From the NCBI GenBank assembly GCA_051362555.1, contig CM120643.1, positions 10,478,001-10,542,000 on the forward strand: 64,000 nt of DNA. The letters are read 5' to 3'. The notes below the pieces were generated by a model. That model was not told where the DNA came from. It saw nothing but the letters and a program-made list of their open reading frames with translations, and did no database searches. Source of the stretch: Lingula anatina. Lineage: Eukaryota > Animalia > Brachiopoda. Position 1 is the stretch's first letter; every line of letters starts with the position of its first letter. This document shows, piece by piece, positions 10,916-64,000 of this stretch. Both the position numbers and the translations under genes were made by a program.

Positions 10916-12488
10916 TGTTTCTCACACAGGAACCCACGGTCCTTCGTACATCCATTATATGAAAACTCAATAAAAAAAATTTGTAGTTTGGCGTTTTATT
11001 TTTCACTTTGTTATGAAATTATTGTGATAAGGATAGTAATAATCATAATGGGAAATTATTTCTTTTAAGTGTTTAAGGACTTTCAAGTTCAATCTGATCT
11101 GTAAATAAAGTCAATGTTTTTGTGGTTGACGGTTTTCTGTGGTACCTAAATTTTAAATAGTTGTAAAATGATCAGTATTTTCTAAATAACCTCTCCAAGC
11201 TGTTTTAGCGCACTGAAATAAAATATCTAAAATGGTTTCCAAAAACCAACATTTTATAGTTCGAATTTATATAAATTTCCAATCCTGGTTTTTAACAAAA
11301 TCAGGTGGGGCGAGTCCATTGCATTGGAAGGGGTGAGAGGTGGGGCGAGTCCATTGCATTGGAAGGGGTGAGGTGGGGCGAGTCCATTGCATTGGAAGGG
11401 GCGACAGGTGGGGCGAGTCCATTGCATAAGAAGGGGTGACAGGTGGGGGGAGTCCATTGCATTAGAGGGGTGACAGGTGGGGCGAGTCCATTGCATAAGA
11501 AGGGGTGTCAGGTGGGGCGAGTCCATTGCATTGGAAGGGGTGACAGGTGGGGCGAGTCCATTGCATTAGAGGGGTGACAGGTGGGCCGAGTCCATTGCAT
11601 AAGAAGGGGGTGACAGGTGGGGCGAGTCCATTGCATAAGGGGTGTCAGGTGGGTCGAGTCCATTGCATTGGAAGGGGGTGATAGGTGGGGTGAGTCCATT
11701 GCCTTGGAAGGGGTGACAGGTAGGGCGAGTCCATTGCATTAGAGGGGTGACAGCTGGGGCGAGTCCATTGCATTAGAGGGATGGCAGGTGGGGTGAGTCC
11801 ATTGCATAAGAAGGGGTGAGTCTTTATTATCCCAATTTGGTTCAGAGAACAGGAACTAAGAAATTGTTCCCTTTTACACCCAGAAATCAATTTTTTGGAC
11901 AATTTCAGCCGTATCCATTAAAAAACAACTTGATTGAAGTTTACACCAGAATTGTCCCACCTTTTCATTATTATTATTAAAATATTAAATTAAGAATTTA
12001 AGCCGTCAAAATGGACACCCCCCCCCCCCCCATATAAGAAAATATAGGAAAAATTATATCCAAACGAATTAGGTCCATATGCTGTAGAACAAAAATCTCA
12101 CGTGATTTTGTTAAAAACCAGGATTGGAAATTTATATAAATTCGAACTATAAAATGTTGGTTCTTGGAAACCATTTTAGATATTTTATTTCAGTGCGCTA
12201 AAACAGCTTGGAGAGTTATTTAGAAAATACTGATCATTTTACAACTATTTAAAATTTAGGTACCACAGAAAACCGTCAACCACAAAAACATTGACATTAT
12301 TTACAGATCAGATTGAACTTGAAAGTCCTTAAACACTTAAAAGAAATCATTTCCCATTATGATTATTACTATCCTTATCACAATAATTTCATAACAAAGT
12401 GAAAAATAAAACGCCAAACTACAAATTTTTTTATTGAGTTTTCATATAATAGATGTACGAAGGACCGTGGGTTCCTGTGTGAGAAACA
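10916..12488. mobile_element. Fold-back structure: ~385-bp near-perfect inverted repeats (10916-11302 / 12104-12488) enclosing a minisatellite
   Basis: tgtttctcacacaggaacccacggtcc...aatcctggtttttaacaaaatc is the reverse complement of gattttgttaaaaaccaggatt...gggttcctgtgtgagaaaca, with few mismatches. Confidence 0.8.
11302..11822. repeat. G-rich minisatellite, ~38-39 bp unit (caggtggggcgagtccattgcattggaaggggtga), ~13 copies
   Basis: Direct reading; explains the repetitive spurious ORFs at 11254-11902. Confidence 0.97.
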
Positions 12489-13083: not shown

Positions 13084-13215
13084 GTCTGTCCTGGCTACTA
13101 AAAGCTGTAAGGGGATAATTAACTGTCGCGCGCTTGACTGACTGCAATTTAGCGTGAACCCCCAGGGAGTTAGGTCGATCCGGATGGATCGATCTAAATC
13201 TCTGGGAATGCACTC
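13084..13215. mobile_element. Truncated copy of a Harbinger-type MITE family (TTCCCATAGATTTTAGATCGATC termini)
   Basis: Shares gcgtgaacccccagggagttaggtcgatc...gatcgatctaaa with 29009-29213 and 62563-62995; ends ...gggaatgcactc-TAA. Confidence 0.7.
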
Positions 13216-26739: not shown

Positions 26740-46826
<20,087 letters not shown>

Positions 46827-47779: not shown

Positions 47780-49287
47780 GTACAGATACCTTGTCTTTTA
47801 AGATAATCACCTTAGATATGCATTCTTTTCTTTTTTTTTTAACAGAATCAAAGCGTGAGGCACCAATGCATGAGTAATCCCAGTAAATGGATTTGGGGTT
47901 TCGTTTCATTTTCCTTTTAACCTATCTCAACTCTTTCTTATTCATTCATTTATTCATTAGACGTCAGACCAAATAGCTGAAATGCATGTTCCATATACAT
48001 GCCTTTCTGTGTAATATCCAATGTTTGCATTTCTTTATAGGGAGGCCTATAGGCCTACGATGTAGGTCTTATATTAACACATAAATGTATGGACCCTCCA
48101 GCACTAAGGTCCCAAAAGCATAGATAGTGGGCTTGTGGCAGTGCCACAGCTTTGTGAATTGGGTTTTAAATTTCTTAATCTTGAATTATTTTCTTTTAGG
48201 ATAATTTTTCACGTCCACCGTTTATAAAACATTAAGATAAAATTATAAACATAAATGGTGGCAGAGCCACGTACGGCATATAGGGCCTATAACAAAAATT
48301 CTGGTTTTACGTTTCTTAGTCTTGTAATGTTTTTCTTGGTAAGTACTGTTTATAATATTTCCATTTCTTGTGTCAGTGAAGAATTATAAACAAGGTGCTA
48401 TATAAACAAATAATTTTATTCAGCTAAATTTCAGCTGAATTTCTAGAGGTTTGTGCAGCCTTCAAATACAACCCATACTGTGGAAAAAGACCTGAGCATG
48501 TGAAATTCCAAGTGATTAAAAAAAAAACCCACTCCCTTCAAACGGATGGGCAAACTGAACATCGATGACGAAGTGCACTTGTTTGCTATCGATTTGTCTT
48601 TGTTCCAAATAATCAAAACATAAGACCCAGTTGATGCAAACTTAGAGCGCTACTCTTAAATTGCATTAAATACCTATTTTTCATTCAGTTTATCGATGGC
48701 ACATTTTCTATGCACTTGCCTACTTAGCTACCGGATACTAGTACATGTATACATGTACCTGTACATGTACTTAGTGTTACAGTACTAGTGGTACAAGTAC
48801 CAGCTACTGGTACAATGTACATGTGTTGGGTAAATACTGTATTGTGGTGCTGTATAGACGAGTATGTATTTGTATGTTTATTAAACAATATCCAGTAAAA
48901 TAATGGCATTATACAGTGTATATGTATGTGTGGTAAAATACTCTTATTATATGCAGTTTGATCCATAGTCTCAACTATATGTACACTGTACCTGTAGCAG
49001 ACATAAATACCGAAAAACAATTCCAGAGATACTAGTAGTAGTACAAGCAAAAAAGGGGTGGGGTGGGGGGGGGGGGATTAATTGCTACTACATGTACGAG
49101 TTAATTTTATAATTAAGAATGCTGTGCAAGGTGTGTGTGTGTGTGTTGGGGGGGGGGGGGTAATTGCTACTACATGTACAAGTTAATTTTATAATTAAGA
49201 ATGCTGTGCATACTGCTTTATTGATGTGTGTAATAATGGGTTCTAAAGATTCATGCTTTTATCTGATGTTTTACAATTTATTTCTAG

Positions 49288-53359
<4,072 letters not shown>

Positions 53360-53383
53360 GTGAGTTTGTGAACCTTTTTTCCC

Positions 53384-53435
<52 letters not shown>

Positions 53436-56400
53436 AAGGACTGTGGTCTTCACTACCTTGTTATTAACTTTGTCTAACAACACTGATTTGATTCTAACAA
53501 TTAAAAAAAAATATATCTAAAACAACCAAACAAAACCCAAGTGACTGAAACTGAGGGTAAAAACAGGCCAATATGTTTTCTTTGAGGTAACGTTGATTAA
53601 TATATCGTTTTCTTCTTGATTCTTAATTCTGTGCCATTCTTTTTATTTAGGCAGCATAATAGTACTGTAAGTCAACTGGCAAATTTGGATGATTTATTTT
53701 TGATATCATCAATGAGTTGCTCTATTCTATATCAGATAAACTTGATAGGGGCAAGTGGGGTGCTTTAAGAACATATTTTGATTTGGAAATGGGTTTTCTT
53801 CACATTTCTTGAATTTGAAAGGACAATGGTCATGGCGTCAGAATGGCCCAAACGGAACATATTCTTCAGAAAACATGCCCAACTAACGACATCTTTATCC
53901 AAATACACAAATTAAAAGCTCATTTTGTAAATTTTGGACTTTAAAAAATGTCCTATTTGCTCGGCCTGAGAGTTAATGAGCTACGTGGTCATGTGGTTCG
54001 ATGACGACAATCGTGCCACCGGCGGAACTGTCGAACTTCTGATAAAAGTTTATACTCATTCAAATCTCTTACCCGAGGGGTCAAAACCCTCGTGAAACTG
54101 TGTAAAACCATTTACCGTCTATTCAATTCTTTAACAAGCATTTAATTATGCTTATCCCAAGTTGTATAAAACACTGCATTTGAATGACTTAAGGGTACTG
54201 TTGATTATTCCATATGAGGTCCATGTTATTTGTGAAATTCAATTTATTTTATTAAACCGCTGACACCCCGTCTTGCATACTTTTATTAAACTGAGGTAAA
54301 CAAGGCCTGTTACCTTTACAAGTCCTATCTTAATCATCCATCTAACTGGAACTTCCTTTGTCTTGTCTTTGTCTTGCGAGTATCGAACGCACTCTCGCTG
54401 GTGATATTTATCTCAGGTAAAAATCTACATGTGCATTAGTTTCAAAGAGCAGCTCCCGCAGACCTGGGGGTACTAGATAAAATCTGAACACCAGGTTTAT
54501 TGAGGAGCTAGAGAAACAAAGGAAGAATTTTTCCTGCAGAGCTTCATAGGAATCTTAACACGATTTGAACCAGCTTAGACCTCCAAACTAACAGGGTAAC
54601 ATGGGTAATTTTCACAAACAAATAATAAAACTATATTTTAGTTCCTTTTAAATAAATATACCGTTATGGGTTAATTAGAATATTAATTAAATCGCGAGAA
54701 TATTTTTGACTTAAATGATGATTTTATTATTAATGGAAATTAATGAAGCTACTATATGTGGTTCATTTGCTGTGATTACGCTGCCCTTCCTGTTTTGCGT
54801 TAGTCTACATTTTGCTGTACGTGCTTTTTAAAATATGTGCGTACAATTTTTGCAGGTCTGGTTATGCCCCTGTTATGTGATGAAAGTCTAAATTTGGCAA
54901 TTGGTTCCTTTGCTTATTAGAATAGAATTGCAGTGTAAAATTTTCAACAAGATGTTGGTGCAATAGCCCTTCACTCTTTGTGGATATTTCCCCTGTCAAA
55001 GTTTCTCTAAAATTATCTTTCAATCTTTACTCTTTCAAGGGCAGTATAAAGTTATCTGACATATTTTCGTGAAAACTTAATGACAAGCCAAGTGTCTCAA
55101 GTTCATTCCGTACCCAATTTTTACCCAAGCAATTTTTTTTCTTGAGTAGATCTTTATAGCATGCTGTTATAATACAATTTTTCGAAGAGGGGATCTAAAT
55201 CAATATTTAAAAAAGTGTAGCTTCATACTTAAAAGAATTGGGTATCTACCGCTTTTATAATATACCAAGTTATGTACAATGAACTTAGTAATCAGTATAG
55301 TGCTCTTTTTTTACACCCAACATTCTTTTAAAAATCTGTATGTGCTATTCTTATATCCCTTACCAGGTTAAATCTCCATGCATAATTTAAAATATACTAA
55401 CGTACATAAAACTGCACATTTAGTAAATGCATGAAAGTAATGATTTTTTACATGCTTCTAGTAGCAAACAGTGCTCTTTTACCTTGATCTGCTACATGTT
55501 TTTGGGTTTGACAAAGCTTACAAATTTGCAAAAAGTTTTGTGTACAGCTGCAGAACTTGCTTTTCAAGTTATCAAATGATAAAATTATTTTATAAATCAG
55601 ATGAAATAACCTTCAGAAACAAATCCTTAAAGCATAAACGAATTAGGATTATATACAAACTATTTTATTACAGCAGTTCCCAAATTTTCTTTAATATACC
55701 CCTCTTTTTCTGTTTTTCCTCAACATGTTTTCTTCCACGGAAGTAATGCCTGGGCATACGCATGCTTCAGGATACCCTGAGAGCAATTACTTTTATTAAT
55801 GTTCGCGACAGTGTTTGAACTCAATTGTTTAAAATATTGATATTTAACGTCATTTACAAATACCAATAATATAACCCCATGAAATAAATGAGATATATTG
55901 AAAAATATGAAAGCCCACCATGACGAGTTTGATACCTGTTATTACCTGGTTTGGGATGTGCAGTGGTGCATAATTAACAGGTTTTATTGTTAACGAGCTC
56001 TTGGTCAACTACAATGCATTTAAAATGCATCAGCAATTAGTAAGCTTGCCAACTGATTACAGTTAATCTGAAAGACTATCAGCTTTTGATATGATCTAAA
56101 CCACCTGAGGTGACCATGATCTCATCGCATCGCACCTATTGTCACCGAAGTTACTAAGTCACGGAAGACCGTCACAGACAAAGAAAAGATTGTGAACAAG
56201 TGCTGCAATTTCGGTGAATCCCACAGCAACACACTGAGGCATAACGAAAATTGCTCAACTCCGTTCAACACAACTTTCCTAAACTTCTCTGTCTGTATGC
56301 ACTTGCAGCACAGTTGAGTCTTATAAATATATGTAGACCTTTATCCTCATTATCGTCACAGTACCATGTTACCCAGATCTGTTGCTTCATTTATGCATAT

Positions 56401-57000
56401 TGAGGTGAGGTTTACTAAAACGCTTTTTGTCTACTAATAGATTGTTTTTATAATTTTTTTAATAGCAGGGATCGATTAAAACATAACTGTAGTGTATAGA
56501 TTAAGTGCTGGATCTTCAGAATTCGAGAAATGGATTTTTATATGACTATTGTCCTTGAAGTCTAAATAGTCACCAACATACATGTCAATATAATAACAAC
56601 GTATTCACTCTGCAGGTGCAAAAAAGAAAAAAAAAATGCATAATATCACTTTACACATAAGTCTGTCAAAGAAAACATAGCACAAATATCAGTGCCATGC
56701 CATTTTATTAACAAAAAAATGTCTCTCCTTTATATGAACAAGACCCTTTTATCTACTGGTATGCCATTAAACCAGCCACTGAGATACAGTTAGAAACACT
56801 TAACTGTTTACACCATTTTTCACTTTTTTATATATATCCACCACACAAACAAAATCATTTAATATCACTGGCTTTTACATTATACAAACTCCATTTACAT
56901 TTGCAGATTGAAATGGCATCAAATGAAAAGAACTGCTTCTTTCTTATGCACATACAGTATGGATGTGGTCCCAGGCTTTAAAACAACAAGCAGACAATTA

Positions 57001-57223
57001 GGGACCGTTCACATGAAAAATCTATTGGCGGTATCTTGTGATCACGGTCTGTGCCCTGAATACCCCGTGGCGTAATTACTGGCAGCGCTAGCGAGTTACT
57101 TCCAAAGCTGTAATAAATTCTCGGCTGTGCTTGGAGGAGATTCTGACACCAGACCGTGATCACAAGATACCGCCAATAGATTTTTAGATTTTTAGAAAAT
57201 AGATTTTTCATGTGAACGGTCCT
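57001..57223. mobile_element. Harbinger-like MITE present only in the right arm
   Basis: TIR ggaccgttcacatgaaaaatctatt / aatagatttttcatgtgaacggtcc plus inner arms; empty site caattaggcaaagc in the left arm near 38200. Confidence 0.85.
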
Positions 57224-57813
57224 CAAGGCAAAGCATGGTTAATATCGCCATGCTGGTGGACTTGAGTACAATGGGGGAGGTTGGGTGGGTGGGGGTTATT
57301 GGTTCTAAATGCTCCTCAAAATATTTCAGCTTCTAAATTTTTTTTTTCAAGCACGTTCACTTTATTTCATACATTCAAAAGACATGTATTTTCCAATGTA
57401 AAATTTAGATGTCTCAACCAAAATTCTTTATCGCATCTTTCACCACAGAGAGCCAGCTACATGCATGATTATGAATTTTAGAGTTTGTTTACAGCTAGTG
57501 AAGTTTATATATTTAGAACAGGTATACTTCAGTTGTGTAATGGTTGATTTAATTTTAATATATTAAAATTGCATTTTTTGGTTGGCAACAATATCTTAAC
57601 CAGTGTTGACTTAAACTGTAACTGGTGTGAACTCAACCATAAAAATATTGCACATCTTGTAGTTTTAAATCTAAATATAGATGATAATTGAAACTCCATA
57701 AATTATTATGGTGGAATTTAAAAGAAACTTGGCTTTTTCTACACTCAGCTGTCACCCTGTTACCTCCAACCCCCCCCCCCCCCAAAAAATAATAATAAAA
57801 ACAAAAACAAAAA

Positions 57814-57847
<34 letters not shown>

Positions 57848-58442
57848 GCAGGATGTCACATTAGTTAACCATTGTGCAAATAATCTGATCAAATAGTTTT
57901 AGTAATTTTAATTGAATTTCATAAAATTCCCATGTATACCCTATACTGTTAGAGTGAACTTATTGGCATAATTTACTATTTAGTAGATGGGACATATTTG
58001 GAGATTTTATAAAACAATTTTGATAGTTTTTGCACAATATTTTTGACTTATGTGGCACTCAAAAATCATTTTATGTGATAAAAAAGAGACATGCAGGGTT
58101 ACTACACTTTCTTTTTTCTGACAGCCTGGTCAAAAAGTTAGAAAAAACAAACTATCTCTGGAGGAAAAATTAAAGAAATAAAAAAAAAAAAGAAGAAGTT
58201 GGGACTGTTAAAAATGAATGAAATATGAAAAAATGAATTTACTGAAGGTAATACACCTTTACAGAATAATGCATTTAGTTAAAAAAAGAAAGAAATATTT
58301 TATGAATAACAACAACTATTAAGTTACGGTAGCCCTACTTTACTAGTACATTCAAAAAGTCCTTACTAATAAGTACTTGAATTAGAGCCTCAAAAGTCTT
58401 TGAAAATCCTTGATTTTTAACTTACTGTATGAACCTACAATT

Positions 58443-59522
58443 TCATTCCCCCCAATCATAAAGAAGTTCTACCTCTTTTTCAATTACAGTACTGTTTTCA
58501 GCGATGTAAAAATATGTTGCTAGCGCTGTGTCTGAGATTTCGGGGAAAATACTGTACCATTTGTTCTGATTTGCAAATTCAAGGAGATCAATTTCCCATG
58601 GTTTGTGCGTGTCACTAGGTTCTTCTTCCTCCCTTATAAGTTCAAGATTTTTGTCTCTATTTATCATGCGATAAACTTGTTTGTCTTTGGTCAGATAGTA
58701 TTCAACTTTATCATCAGCATTCCTTTTTTTCTGCTGAAATCCCTGCATGCTCTGCAAATTGTCAAGCTTTTGTTTTTCTTCAGAATCTTTGATTTTCATC
58801 CTTGATTGCTGCTTTTTCATGTCATACCAGTGTAAAAATTCCTCCCAATGCCTGGCTTTTGGTGAAAATCCTTCCAGAAGAATCATGCCATGCAACTCAT
58901 TGTCATGCAAAGAAGTGGAGAATGCTGGATTGTAAATGAGTTGGCGAGTGATATACCCATTGCCCAAAAGGAAGGCATAGATATTCGGATTTGATGCATG
59001 CTGCTTGTGGGCAAGCTTCAGCCATTTGTAAAACTGTGGCGACACCATTGTATTGTCGTGCAAGAAGAGGACAATTTCTTTTACGTTACTTGCAGGTCTC
59101 CATGTATTTGTCCACTGGAAATCCCTTCCTTTATGTATGGGTTGAACATGCACTGATACAAGGACGTTATCACACTTAAAGCTATTTGCTACATACAGAG
59201 TACTCATATCTATTGTATTATCTTCATTTCTGTCTATCCAGATTTCAATCTCAACGCGATCCATTTGGAATTCTGCTTGACATACAGATGTCAGTGTTGT
59301 TTGCAGGCATTGAGATTGGTTCATGGTTAAAACTATGACTCGTAGATCAGTCGGATGGCTGTTCAGGTACTGAGCGATGAAGTTCCTCGTATCTTGTCTT
59401 ATATCCATTTGGTATATGTGCCCTATATAAAGCTGAAACAGCCCTATACATACAAGAACCAAACCTGCCAAAACGGGGCCACTCCAGAATTTTTTCATGT
59501 TAAAATTATTTTCCTTTGCCAT
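58443..59522 (-). CDS. Glycosyltransferase-like protein, copy B (359 aa from Met)
   Basis: Intact ORF of the same length as copy A; 19 amino-acid differences by my count. Confidence 0.8.
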   Translation of the reverse strand: MAKENNFNMKKFWSGPVLAGLVLVCIGLFQLYIGHIYQMDIRQDTRNFIAQYLNSHPTDLRVIVLTMNQSQCLQTTLTSVCQAEFQMDRVEIEIWIDRNEDNTIDMSTLYVANSFKCDNVLVSVHVQPIHKGRDFQWTNTWRPASNVKEIVLFLHDNTMVSPQFYKWLKLAHKQHASNPNIYAFLLGNGYITRQLIYNPAFSTSLHDNELHGMILLEGFSPKARHWEEFLHWYDMKKQQSRMKIKDSEEKQKLDNLQSMQGFQQKKRNADDKVEYYLTKDKQVYRMINRDKNLELIREEEEPSDTHKPWEIDLLEFANQNKWYSIFPEISDTALATYFYIAENSTVIEKEVELLYDWGE

Positions 59523-61328
59523 TAATTCATATGAATCAGTTCCTGTTTTCAAAACTGATTCCAATTTTTGTGTCTCAGAGCAACAGTACAACCAGTTCCA
59601 AAAATGTTTAGAGTTTCCAAGTGTAGGTAAAAGTGTAGGCTTCTCAAATCCCTCCTGTTTTATAGGCAGATGTCTCCTTTAGACTCTGCTTAGCTCCAGT
59701 TGAGAATTGATTCAAACTGTGTTCAACTGCTTGCCCTTCATTGTTATCGACTGCTCCACTTTTATTCTGTTCACATTCGCAGTTTCATTGTATCTTTCTC
59801 GTTATATACACCTGATATCCAATGCAGAGCAATTGTATTTATGTATGCAATTCCCTTGTATATACATAAATGTATATGCCAGAACTTGGAATAATTGTAC
59901 CCTTGATTCAGTATACTGTTGTAGATGCACTGTAGCACAAACTGTTGCATCCAATGTCACATCACCAACTGCAAGGTATCATCATTGGGATCCAGTCTCA
60001 AAATGCCATGAAATGAATTTTTATAGCACAGGATGCAGAGAAACCCTCAGGTGAAATCAGTCATGCTGTCCTCAGGCTTTCAGTTCAGTTTCCATACATG
60101 TTCATAATCATTTCATTTTTCACCTTCATCTGGAAGGATATAAATGTGGGAAATTAATTTATAATTTATACATATACATTGCTGTGTCATGAATGCATGG
60201 AAAGTACCAGGAGATTTTATTAGTGATCATTTCTACCTGTTTTCAGTCTATAGTTTATCCTTTCTACATACCTTACTGTAACAGTAATTACTTAAATTTT
60301 CTAATACACGTGAACCATGAAAATCTGACTCCCCTAAAATGTGACTCCCCAGTCAGATTTTCATTATGAAAATGTGACTCCCCAGTCAGATTTTCATGAT
60401 GAAAATCTGACTCCCCCTATGAAATTTTGACTCCCCCCAAAAAAACATTCATAAATCTCATTTAATTTGAGTAAATGACTATATATGATCTTGTAGTATG
60501 CATAATGGAGGACACATTGGCACTTTTTGTTAGTTTGCAGGTGAAAATTTTCATGAAAAAATAAAAAAAATTAAAGATTTGTATTTTACCACCCAAGGAC
60601 TTCCCTATGAAAAAGCTATTTATTTGACATCTGATGACCGTTTCAACATCTTTTCTTTGAGGATACTTTATGAGGAATATATTGAAAGTACTTGAAAGTT
60701 TGATGGTTAAAAAACTGGGTGAAAAAAAAAAAAAAAAAAAAAAAAAACACATTAAAAAATAAGAAAAATTAAAGATTTATATTCTAACACCCAATGAATC
60801 CCCTATACAAAAGCTACGTATTTACGTGCAGTTCTACCTCGACCATTGAGCAATCAACACGTCGTTGTCAGAACTCCTTGGCTCACAATAGTGACACGCA
60901 GGTGAATATCCTTACCACCTTACTGTGCCGCTATTAGATACACACATACAAAGGCGAGACACCTTTGTAAGGACGAGACGTCCTCGCACATAAGTGCATT
61001 TACAATCTGCGTAAGCAGACACACACTCACAAAGGCGAGACACCTTTGATGAGAACCGGGTTAGCAATCAACACGTCGTTGTCAGAACTCCTTGGCTCAC
61101 AATAGTGACACGCAGGTGACTGTCCTTACCACCTTACTGTGCCGCTATCAGTAAGCAACACCACCACTAAGCGAGATACTTTCGTGGTCTACTATATCGT
61201 CACAAGCGAGACACTTGTGAACGTACTCTCTCACTGTGATCTGCCTAGCAGATACACACATACAAAGGCGAGACACCTTTGTAAGGACGAGACGTCCTCG
61301 CACATAAGTGCATTTACAATCTGCGTAA

Positions 61329-62016
61329 TGCCCCTATTTCACACAGACCACGAATCCCACGAATGGCCAGGAATTGACAAATTTCACGATTCGTGGTTGA
61401 ATCGTAATCAGTTCGTGAAGTTCTTAACAGATTCGTATAAATTCCTAGTCAATTCTTGAACTTCTTGACCAACAGGAATTGGTGGCAAAAACTTTGATGC
61501 CCCTATTTCACACAGACCACGAATCCCACGAATCGCCAGGAATTGAAAATTTTAGGATTCGTGGTTGAATCGTAATCAGTTCGTGAAGTTCTTAACAGAT
61601 TCGTATATAATCGTAGTCAGTTCTTGCAATTCTTGATCAATCGGGAATTCGTGGCAAAAATTTTGAACTGTTCGAAGTTTTGGCCACGAACTCCCGATTC
61701 CAAAAAATAGTAGTGAATTTCTGGACAATATTCGTGCGATTCCAGCCGAATCCCACGAATATTCGTAACACTATCGCACCTGTATCGTAACTGAATCGTA
61801 GAGCGTGTCGAATTAGACCAAAAAATTGGCAAAATCTCACGATTCCAGCCGAACCCCACGAATATTCGTAACACTATCGTACCTGTATCGTAACTGAACC
61901 GTGAGCGTGTCGAATAAGACCAGAAAATTGGCAAAATCTCACGAATCCTCACGAATCCTGAAATTTGTCAATTCCTGGCGATTCGTGGGATTCGTGGTCT
62001 GTGTGAAATAGGGGCC
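61329..62016. mobile_element. PIF/Harbinger-type non-autonomous element, TAA TSD, nested in the concatemer
   Basis: TAA-tgcccctatttcacacagaccacgaatcccacgaat ... attcgtgggattcgtggtctgtgtgaaataggggcc-TAA; empty site ctgcgTAAgcagac near 61010; duplicated left end near 61498. Confidence 0.9.
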
Positions 62017-62160
62017 TAAGCAGACACACTCACAAAGGCGAGACACCTTTGATGAGAACCGGGTTCTCTCCACCTGGGGAAAACCACCTGCTGCTATACA
62101 GCATTGACCACCCCCTCACGCACACCCAACCCCTTTTTTCCTTTTTTTTCTTTCGGACTC

Positions 62161-62205
62161 TGCAGCTGATGAAGGTCACTTGTTGACCGAAAACCGCTTT
62201 CTGCA
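62161..62205 (+). ncRNA. Minimal type I hammerhead ribozyme (copy 1)
   Basis: TGCAG-CTGATGA-a-GGTCA-cttgt-TGACC-GAAA-accgct-tt-CTGCA. Confidence 0.75.
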
Positions 62206-62562
62206 ACCAGTCCACCCCCCCCCCCTCTCCAGGCTGTACGACCCGTACAACCTTTCTCTGGTCACTTTCATACAGAGGTAAGACGCCTCTCTCTGCACCA
62301 CGCTGACGTGAGACGCCTCATGCAGTACGCTGTACACAGCTACGCACACACACTCCATCAGATATAACTTTAATCTGATATATCAAATCACTCCTTCACA
62401 CAAACGTAACGAAGGAAAACAAAGGGAATTAGAGCATTAAATCTCAACCCCTAGCGTCCCACCAACAATCTCTAAGCTTTTAACTAGGGGCGCTGTCAAA
62501 ACACACGTCCCCAGGGGCCCAGCCTTGGATCGTGTTATTTTGATTTGAGGTAGTTTAACTAA

Positions 62563-62995
62563 GGCTCTATTCCCATAGATTTTAGATCGATCTATCCCTG
62601 CGGGGAGTCTCACTAGATTACTTTCAGATAATCCGACTTAAATGTCCGTCCCGCCTACTACAAGCTGTAAGAGGGTAATTAACTTTCGTGTCCGCCCGGC
62701 TGACAGCTGTCTAGCGTGAACCCCCAGGGAGTTAGGTCGATCTAAAGTAGGTCGATCTAATCTATGAAAAATGGGTGTAAGGCTCTATTCCCATAGATTT
62801 TAGATCGATCTATCCCCGCGGGGAGTCTCACTAGATTACTTTCAGATAATCCGACTTAAATGTCCGTCCCGCCTACTACAAGCTGTAAGGGGGTAATTAA
62901 CTTTCGTGTCCGCCCGGCTGAGAGCTATTTAGCGTGAACCCCCAGGGAGTTAGGTCGATCTAAAGTAGGTCGATCTAAACTATGGCAATGGGGTG
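62563..62995. mobile_element. Head-to-tail dimer of a ~215-bp Harbinger-type MITE (62563-62777, 62781-62995), separated and flanked by TAA
   Basis: Empty site gtttaacTAAggcatgagcc near 63555; filled site TAA-[unit]-TAA-[unit]-TAA-ggcatgagcc. Confidence 0.9.
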
Positions 62996-63155
62996 TAAGG
63001 CATGAGCCGACCACCCCCAAACTTGAGTTCTACCTCGACCATTGAGCAATCAACACGTCGTTGTCAGAACTCCTTGCCACCTGCTGCTATACAGCATTGA
63101 CCACCCCCTCACGCAAACCCAACCCCTTTTTTCCTTTTTTTTTACTTTCGGACTC

Positions 63156-63200
63156 TGCAGCTGATGAAGGTCACTTGTTGACCGAAAAGCGCTTTCTGCA
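63156..63200 (+). ncRNA. Minimal type I hammerhead ribozyme (copy 2)
   Basis: TGCAG-CTGATGA-a-GGTCA-cttgt-TGACC-GAAA-agcgct-tt-CTGCA; palindromic stem III AAAGCGCTTT; predicted cleavage after 63195. Confidence 0.8.
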
Positions 63201-64000
63201 ACCAGTCCAACCCCCCCCCCCCCCCTCCAGGCTGTACGACCCGTACAACCTTTCTCTGGTCACTTTCATACAGAGGTGAGACGCCTCTCTCTACACCACG
63301 CTGAGGTGAGACGCCTCATGCAGTACGCTGTACACAGCTACGCACACACACTCCATCAGATATAACTTTAATCTGATATATCAAATCACTCCTTCACACA
63401 AACGTAACGAAGGAAAACAAAGGGAATTAGAGCATTAAATCTCAACCCCGAGCGTCCCACCAACAATCTCTAAGCTTTTAACTAGGGGCGCTGTCAAAAC
63501 ACACGTCCCCAGGGGCCCAGCCTTGGATCGTGTTATTTTGATCTGAGGTAGTTTAACTAAGGCATGAGCCGACCACCCCCAAACAAAAAACAAATACGTA
63601 TTTGATATTTGATGATCATACTGACATCTTTTCTTTGAGGATACTTTATGAGGAATATATTGAAAGTACTTGAAAGTTTGATGGTAAAAGAATTGGGTGA
63701 AAAAAAAACACATTAAAAAATAAGAAAAATTAAAGATTTATATTCTAACACCCTATGACTCCCCTATGAAAAAGCTATCTATTTGATATTTGATGATCAT
63801 TCTGACATCTTTTCTTTAAGGATACTTTATGAAGAATATATTGGAAATATTTGAAAGGTTGAATGGTAAAATGCTGGGTATGCTATATAAGAGGAATTCA
63901 GTAAAAAGGCGATGGGGCCAATTTCTTGAGTTAAAAATGTAGCGTTTTGACATGGAAGTGCAAAACCTACAGGTAGTAAGATGAATACTTGTTTTAAAGA

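Follow-up and report, generated by a model that had tools for sequence, protein, structure and literature searches.

A Retrozyme-Like Insertion with a Near-Fixed Hairpin Loop Repeated on Different Stems, a Putative Protein-Docking Site

Introduction

The ribozyme-bearing retroelements closest to the sequence described here are of two kinds. Animal non-long-terminal-repeat (non-LTR) retrozymes are noncoding tandem units with one type I hammerhead each, a GC content below 50%, a target duplication of more than 4 bp, and many genomic copies (PMC7229834; bioRxiv 10.64898/2026.07.22.740005), and the mechanisms by which they are recognized and copied are still to be elucidated (bioRxiv 10.64898/2026.07.22.740005). 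Penelope-like elements (PLEs) carry hammerheads in their pseudo-LTRs (pLTRs) that have an unpaired base before helix II, a G10.1-C11.1 pair, and a palindromic helix III; these elements also show a possible intron end at helix I, a partial-tandem layout, and a 3' end in an AC-rich run, distant from the ribozyme cut and at an AT-rich target (PMC4209133; PMC11167929; PMC8557442), and unnamed host factors have been invoked for them (PMC4209133). These sequence features recur, with the 3' end and target judged from this one copy, in a 2,771-bp insertion on the plus strand (60824-63594) of a 64-kb stretch of genomic DNA, the whole of which is called the window below. Comparisons with published systems, here and throughout, draw on excerpts of the cited texts.

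The insertion carries, in addition, short hairpins in which a near-fixed seven-nucleotide loop recurs on different stems. A repeated fixed-loop hairpin is not mentioned in the retrozyme excerpts (PMC7229834; bioRxiv 10.64898/2026.07.22.740005), and fixed-loop hairpin arrays are not reported in those on PLEs (PMC4209133; PMC11167929; PMC8557442). No description of the motif in either group was found in the literature covered, which included excerpts of PMC3494683 and PMC8490949, or in Rfam; supplementary mussel and coral retrozyme sequences and folds, which lie outside that scope, could hold a similar hairpin. The class of the element is known, and the repeated fixed-loop module appears to be undescribed in retrozymes and PLEs. 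The hairpins, observed in one organism, are real and exceed chance.

The Hairpin Array

Twelve loops matching Y[GA]AGAYR lie within the insertion, all on the plus strand, with loop starts at 60955, 60974, 61036, 61172, 61207, 61269, 61288, 62039, 62279, 62309, 63277, and 63307. When matches to this pattern were listed on both strands of the window with stems disregarded, a Watson-Crick stem of at least 4 bp enclosed ten of the 12 element loops, which are not independent copies, and none of the 94 matches elsewhere; for stems of at least 3 bp the counts were 11 of 12 and 3 of 94. Taken alone, the 7-mer shows no window-wide enrichment (44 against 36 +/- 7), so the signal is the loop together with its stem. 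In a motif-free test, one 4-nt loop core was flanked by five distinct stems next to the loop, a number reached by 0 of 2000 dinucleotide shuffles; the shuffles had a maximum of 4, or 3 on a non-redundant subset.

The initial annotation described twelve hairpins at these positions. Their coordinates are correct, but they are not twelve independent units: the copies reduce to seven distinct hairpins (A, B, A', C, D, E, and F), and A, B, A', E, and F are each doubled by near-identical blocks. Hairpin A (60947-60969) has an 8-bp stem and the loop CGAGACA, and is followed directly by B (60970-60984), with a 4-bp stem and the loop CGAGACG. Hairpin A' (61026-61053) pairs over 6 + 4 bp with one bulge around CGAGACA; C (61163-61188) pairs over 3 + 5 bp with an internal loop and has the terminal loop CGAGATA; and D (61200-61220) places CGAGACA on a 7-bp stem. 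An identical 79-nt block brings second copies of A and B at 61261-61298, and the second copy of A' lies at 62029-62056. Hairpins E and F occur in unit 1 of the insertion (62274-62320), where E has the loop TAAGACG and the stem of F is broken at 62307, and in unit 2 (63272-63318), where the loop is TGAGACG and the two stems differ by one swapped pair. All of these are on the plus strand. The F copy at 62309, with its broken stem, takes an alternative fold; this copy and the TAAGACG loop at 62279 may represent decay after insertion, because they differ from unit 2 and the hammerhead of unit 1 likewise carries a non-majority base.

In local folds the hairpins stay separate (z = -4.8, -2.5, and -2.2). 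Longer folds give a stem-pair probability of at least 0.7 in nine of them, about 0.47 in C, 0.18 in E at 63277, and 0 in F at 62309. The unpaired bases of the element are 70-72% A+C. The loop can also be read as a Y1.R7 pair and a G2-Y6 pair beneath an AGA triloop; its closing pair is a wobble or mismatch in ten of the 12 copies, with Y1.R7 being C.A or U.G in six of the seven hairpins. The C.A+ and U.G wobbles are isosteric.

Covariation and Variation among Copies

Alignment of the paralogous hairpins, which gave nine distinct rows, shows paired change on both sides at six of nine pairs. The three loop-adjacent pairs are Watson-Crick in all 21 cells over the seven hairpins, each with two pair types, and A3, G4, and A5 of the loop are invariant in all nine rows. 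The covariation score for these rows was 0.438 against 0.261 +/- 0.050, a value attained by 0 of 500 shuffles, and slid controls did not exceed 0.27.

Other genomic copies were sampled in two DNA runs, from which 48 and 34 contigs aligned to a 324-nt hairpin stretch. Between 61150 and 61283, variants in these copies fall at five of 53 hairpin-core positions, as picked by the analyst, and at 26 of 81 others (p = 0.003; 40 of 55 variant rows). Changes at 61168 in hairpin C, an inserted base beside it, and a change at 61183 would shut the internal loop, their linkage on one molecule being unshown, and one stem change in hairpin D retains a G.U pair. An assembly artefact was rejected because other copies occur in four DNA runs. 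The paired paralogue changes, the depletion of variants in the cores, and the ribozyme-bearing context support the proposal in the initial annotation that selection acts on an RNA structure, and on this comparison of sequences the structure is probably under selection.

Joints in other copies connect A to D, B to A', and the unit end to A, place A' or B shortly before the hammerhead, or skip E and F; since they show other orders, the hairpins behave as movable modules that survive rearrangement. That these joints adjoin hairpins, that expression is low, that five of the 12 copies are recent duplicates, and that A, A', and D share flanks or stems would all fit an improbable origin as a by-product, in which reverse-transcriptase slippage multiplied one ancestral hairpin while fold-back repair, in place of selection, preserved stem pairing. 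Such repair would, however, perfect the C.A pair and the bulges, yet both persist; palindrome repair would likewise be expected to remove the loop-closing Y1.R7 that is kept in six of seven hairpins. The loop is also more conserved than stems or linkers, and the shortage of core variants is against such an origin. Internal duplication, which the initial annotation had set against selection, accounts for five of the 12 copies and is probably how the rest arose, but it does not explain the paired changes.

A Putative Binding Site for a Host Protein

We favour, at an even balance of probability, the reading that the fixed GAGAY loop is a putative binding site of one host RNA-binding protein that reads the hairpins. 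A short loop retained on seven different stems would be ready bait for a partner protein. The plus strand is taken as the working strand because it is the strand of the hammerhead and has A/C-rich linkers, and plus-strand RNA would be the working molecule. A PLE enzyme would start copying at the AC-rich 3' end, beside the 5' bulged hairpin of the next unit; template switches between look-alike hairpins would multiply and reorder them; and copies that keep the loop on an intact stem might be better bound, protected, or trafficked and would then spread more. As the reader of the loop, a host factor that coats the RNA is likely a better candidate than a helper reverse transcriptase.

The leading named candidate for the partner is the cold-shock domain of Lin28, for which a GNGAY preference in hairpin loops has been proposed (PMC3985620; bioRxiv 10.1101/202036). 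The loop fits GNGAY in 11 of the 12 copies, and the pre-let-7d site of Lin28 has GAGAU (PMC3985620; bioRxiv 10.1101/202036), as does hairpin C; the element differs from the pre-let-7 site in having mostly GAC, a 7-nt loop, and no GGAG on the plus strand. A fuller scenario, in which a retrozyme subfamily evolved and multiplied a pre-let-7 loop mimic, a shuffled GAGAY array that recruits Lin28 or another germ- and stem-cell cold-shock-domain protein and has converged on a bacterial hairpin described below, is decidedly doubtful. If true, Lin28-type recruitment would be a host handle not described for ribozyme retroelements.

The same loop invites comparison with the CAB box (ugAG) of telomerase and AluACA RNAs, which like the present motif lies on the 5' side of a terminal loop with a first-base wobble and G-C closing pairs (PMC5207380). 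The loops here start with YGAG or UAAG, A3 and G4 are invariant in all 12 window copies, and the first base forms a wobble with a purine on the 3' side above G-C pairs, an arrangement also seen in the CR7 loop of human telomerase RNA (hTR) and in AluACA loops (PMC5207380). The hairpins could then be a CAB-box-like signal for WDR79/TCAB1 that causes nuclear retention of the RNA, as happens with telomerase RNA, but this is very improbable. There is no H/ACA architecture: the element has seven short hairpins, with stems of 4-10 bp, where the CAB box/BIO RNAs have one long hairpin (PMC5207380), and an ACA or H box stands 24-28 nt after the loop in three of 12 copies, where a further hairpin intervenes. 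The hairpins also lack the terminal unpaired U of the BIO motif, and G4 is lost in one genomic variant.

A number of results weigh against a host-protein binding site as we have proposed it, or against its supports. Three RNA runs (each read at 6-25%, from poly(A), oligo-dT, or unspecified libraries) give a depth of 0-6 across the hairpin bins; the depth is 0 in run X19, and some of the run X16 reads there look antisense. This very low coverage also weakens the suggestion in the initial annotation that the array sequesters a host protein. Two of five covariation measures are unexceptional, changes on both sides being matched in 29 of 500 shuffles and further pair types in 350 of 500, and the covariation set consists of nine related rows from which the structure itself was derived, hairpin B giving several of the changes. 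The count of core and linker variants similarly rests on 40 of 55 variant rows. Two contigs of run X1 turn the D loop into GAAAC, which no longer fits GNGAY, and the D stem is disrupted in single contigs; in runs X11 and X12, from two other organisms, 0 contigs aligned on 61005-61328, though this does not prove absence. Folding is more stable for the minus strand, and the C.A of six copies becomes G.U on it, so that the wobble test leaves the strand unfixed. No autonomous PLE partner was found, and no PLE open reading frame (ORF) was recognized among the 11 window ORFs of at least 120 amino acids. For Lin28 in particular, GAC takes the place of the preferred GAU in 11 of 12 loops, and GGAG, which the zinc knuckles would read, occurs 0 times on the plus strand of the element outside its nested transposons. 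The minus strand of the same sequence holds GGAG 10 times, a strong strand bias.

Likeness to Bacterial REP-Like Repeats

The initial annotation knew of no described motif of this kind in retrozymes or PLEs, and for those groups the statement holds, but a nearly identical hairpin is common in bacterial repeats that resemble repetitive extragenic palindromes (REPs). REPs tagged with GTAG or GTGG, which accompany TnpA-REP or REP-associated tyrosine transposases (RAYTs), have a near-identical stem-CGAGACG-stem, short arrays, and variable spacers (PMC3733652; PMC6006769). A generic two-hairpin pattern built from the window matched at least 122 metagenome loci, some overlapping, and at least 61 of them contain at least two hairpins whose stems reach 4 bp; the shared RG/CY stem follows from the design of the pattern, the abundance of true palindromes does not. 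Among the matches listed, 164 of 194 hairpins have the loop CGAGACG, 15 of 61 loci have hairpins on both strands, and a crude scan found no hammerhead. After many of the metagenome hairpins comes CTAC, CCAC, or a similar sequence, which is complementary to the REP foot. Of two ORFs adjacent to such loci, one scored above the Pfam cut-off for Y1_Tnp and the other just below it. These REP-like loci (L045-L166; for example L048, L053, and L099) have the loop CGAGACG or TGAGACA and a GC content of 0.28-0.74, and RAYT-like ORFs adjoin some of them; in L053/L054 a methyltransferase-like ORF contains the RAYT-like part in frame. In viral contigs the generic pattern gave 44 loci, five with two hairpins and none with a hammerhead core, and a search for the E/F pair gave 0. 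The 19-mer of hairpin A had one match in genome contigs, which looks like chance in bacterial coding sequence.

The REP-like matches are perfect palindromes, often with a tetranucleotide foot, whereas the element keeps a nonstandard closing pair and a single strand. The loop is closed by a Watson-Crick pair in 188 of 194 metagenome hairpins among the matches listed and in two of 12 element copies, and CTAC within 3 nt after the stem occurs in two of the seven distinct hairpins, so a REP foot is not a regular part of them. We infer that the likeness is one of convergence; it offers a natural comparison between DNA use and RNA use of one fold.

It is most improbable that the hairpins act as single-stranded DNA, either as substrates of a REP-like HUH transposase or as signals in complementary DNA, even though the same stem-loop dominates the generic metagenome pattern, sometimes beside Y1_Tnp ORFs, and the minus strand is the more stable in folding. 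Besides the differences in loop closure and foot, the array has no inverted pairs, the 11 window ORFs of at least 120 amino acids all lie away from the element, and the insertion has a retroposition footprint. No HUH transposase was found: no ORF of that size lies in or beside the element, and neither of the two scanned against Pfam, out of the 11, matched Y1_Tnp.

The occurrence of the same hairpin in unrelated bacterial repeats hints at intrinsic stability, and with it at an unlikely alternative that needs no protein reader. The loop would be a stable folding motif, either GAGA in a GNRA-like form with its pyrimidine extruded or an AGA triloop above a wobble pair. It would hold the RNA in a beads-on-a-string arrangement that lets the hammerhead fold, and it may dock on AG/CU steps of neighbouring stems. 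The GAAAC variant is compatible with GNRA, and an AG/CU step, which excerpts of the literature report as a receptor of GYGA loops, lies within 4 bp of the loop in all seven stems. In such excerpts, however, GAGA is only one of 31 GNRA loops in receptor contacts, and the register of the AG/CU step varies. Stability alone would not demand one loop seven times, given that other hairpins of the element have unrelated loops.

The Insertion and Its Hammerheads

The insertion consists of two tandem noncoding units which, net of two nested miniature inverted-repeat transposable elements (MITEs), measure about 1,070 nt (unit 1) and 558 nt (unit 2). Its longest ATG ORF outside the MITEs has 60 amino acids, and GC is 0.39-0.45 in the two 2-kb bins that cover it. 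It lies inside a 181-bp host repeat and is flanked by a 9-bp target-site duplication, with the left copy at 60815-60823 and the right copy at 63595-63603, directly after a short A-rich tail (63585-63594, plus strand); the 9-bp target sequence is present in a single copy at the corresponding position of sister host repeat units. The other arm of a large inverted duplication, described below, is without the element, but it is not a strict empty site because one host repeat unit is missing there too.

Both units have the same bulged hairpin at the start, a minimal type I hammerhead after a pyrimidine tract, and the same AC-rich run at the end; unit 2 is without the 5' hairpin array. The bulged hairpin lies on the plus strand at 60831-60877 in unit 1, with a partial copy from 61063, and at 63025-63073 in unit 2 (fold z = -3.97), two bases past the end point of the unit sequence. 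The copy at 60831-60877 is a candidate signal beside the copying start. The 3' block that ends in the AC-rich run (63468-63584, plus strand) occurs widely in the family, as indicated by contig depth and by loose ends on the unit-1 copy, and is likely the region where reverse transcription would start. The 5' and 3' ends of the element fall at nearly the same unit point (60831 and 63022-63027), just before the bulged hairpin, which in this one insertion would fit copying that begins at a fixed site and runs a full round of a circular template. Seven extra bases at the 5' junction (60815-60830) resemble an inverted copy of the target flank and possibly stem from fold-back priming.

The hammerheads occupy 62155-62213 in unit 1 and 63150-63208 in unit 2, both on the plus strand, with predicted cuts after 62200 and 63195. 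In unit 2 the core is intact, a base between positions 9 and 10.1 stays unpaired ahead of helix II, the pair G10.1-C11.1 is present, and helix III is palindromic; the hammerhead of unit 1 carries one non-majority base and one broken helix III pair, at 62194. Rfam gave no hammerhead match in the window, and a search for the hammerhead pattern found no locus in either metagenome or viral contigs. Over the hammerhead, RNA depth is 3-7 on the expected strand in runs X16 and X19. No end pile at the predicted cut, back-joint or circle, or splice joint was seen in the three partly read RNA runs, in which circles would be lost from libraries of the poly(A) type.

Helix I is abutted by a pyrimidine tract that ends in CAG (62113-62165, and again at about 63106-63160, plus strand). 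This is a possible 3' splice site, and it resembles the intron end in the Penelope of D. virilis according to excerpts on that element. Donor-like sites occur in the 5' array near 60900, 61010, 61115, and 61150. Splicing to the CAG would take out the 5' array and disable the ribozyme; spliced reads were absent from the RNA runs just mentioned.

From these features the element is likely a non-LTR retrozyme-like, nonautonomous member of the Penelope type, a class already known, which a Penelope-like retrotransposon likely copies. Its 3' end lies about 390 nt beyond the predicted cut in an AC-rich run at an AT-rich target, as in excerpts on an anole PLE in vitro, with one insertion only to compare here. 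Retrozyme monomers described in 2020 are 170-400 nt long and highly self-paired (PMC7229834), whereas the units here have 558 and about 1,070 nt and 42-53% of their bases are unpaired, which puts the element outside that definition taken strictly; the 558-nt unit lies inside the 51-972 bp range of the retrozyme preprint (bioRxiv 10.64898/2026.07.22.740005). The fold is a chain of short hairpins, and the hammerhead is of the minimal PLE type, unlike those in the excerpts on animal non-LTR retrozymes. Unlike PLEs, the element has no ORF (PMC4209133; PMC11167929; PMC8557442).

Such a class would suit a further explanation of the array, raised in the initial annotation as recruitment of a helper reverse transcriptase: the hairpins would be a handle for a helper PLE protein, several copies loading several reverse transcriptase/endonuclease molecules just downstream of the copying start. 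The 5' array starts about 120 nt past the unit junction if the template is tandem or circular, every unit here has at least two hairpins, and excerpts on the anole PLE protein describe a need for RNA downstream of start sites and a predicted dimer. We nevertheless regard the explanation as rather unlikely, since many family members are without these exact hairpins. In run X3 the summed contig depth, which is not copy number, was about 49,000 over the hammerhead, 25,000 over the 3' block, and 500-2,300 over the hairpin bins. The hammerhead and 3' block are thus about 20-50 times deeper than most hairpin bins, which weakens the proposed recruitment, and a joint of 62240 to 62477 skips E and F; these exact hairpins seem to occur in a minority of the family. 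The depth ratio is not decisive, because diverged stems would not align at 80-85% identity. In the consensus files of Naiad, Chlamys, and Hydra, where line breaks can hide matches, six 9-mers (loop plus closing pair) gave two isolated matches, both without a stem. Capsid recruitment or packaging, also suggested in the initial annotation, was rejected as no capsid partner was seen.

Other Features of the Window

MITE 1 (61329-62016) lies in unit 1, outside the hairpin array, with terminal inverted repeats and a TAA duplication, a footprint that we take to be PIF/Harbinger-like. It is very abundant, has internal tandem repeats and a central hairpin that yields sub-threshold microRNA-precursor matches, and is found in all three RNA runs. 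MITE 2 (62563-62998), also inserted in unit 1, comprises two tandem 218-bp copies with TAA between and around them, and has family relatives at 13084-13210 and 29016-29207. Rfam gave 0 matches in the window at gathering score. A microRNA precursor was rejected as an identity for the hairpins: the ten sub-threshold Rfam matches to microRNA precursors (E up to 10) include nine on MITE 1 and none on the loops. There is no RNA polymerase III B box in the element.

The PLE-type hammerhead, the MITEs, and exon-like ORFs mark the window as eukaryotic and probably animal. A large inverted duplication relates 34432-46751 to 48435-64000 at about 94-97% identity and could be real or a haplotype mis-join. 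Its arms hold paralogous ORFs (35940-37019 on the plus strand and 58443-59678 on the minus strand) and MORN-repeat exons (45085-45561, minus, and 49614-50084, plus). The 359-amino-acid ORF at 35940-37019 matched nothing in Pfam and had no homologue at E 1e-20. Elsewhere, 392-bp inverted repeats (98% identical) surround a tandem array of 34-35-bp units at 10916-12488.

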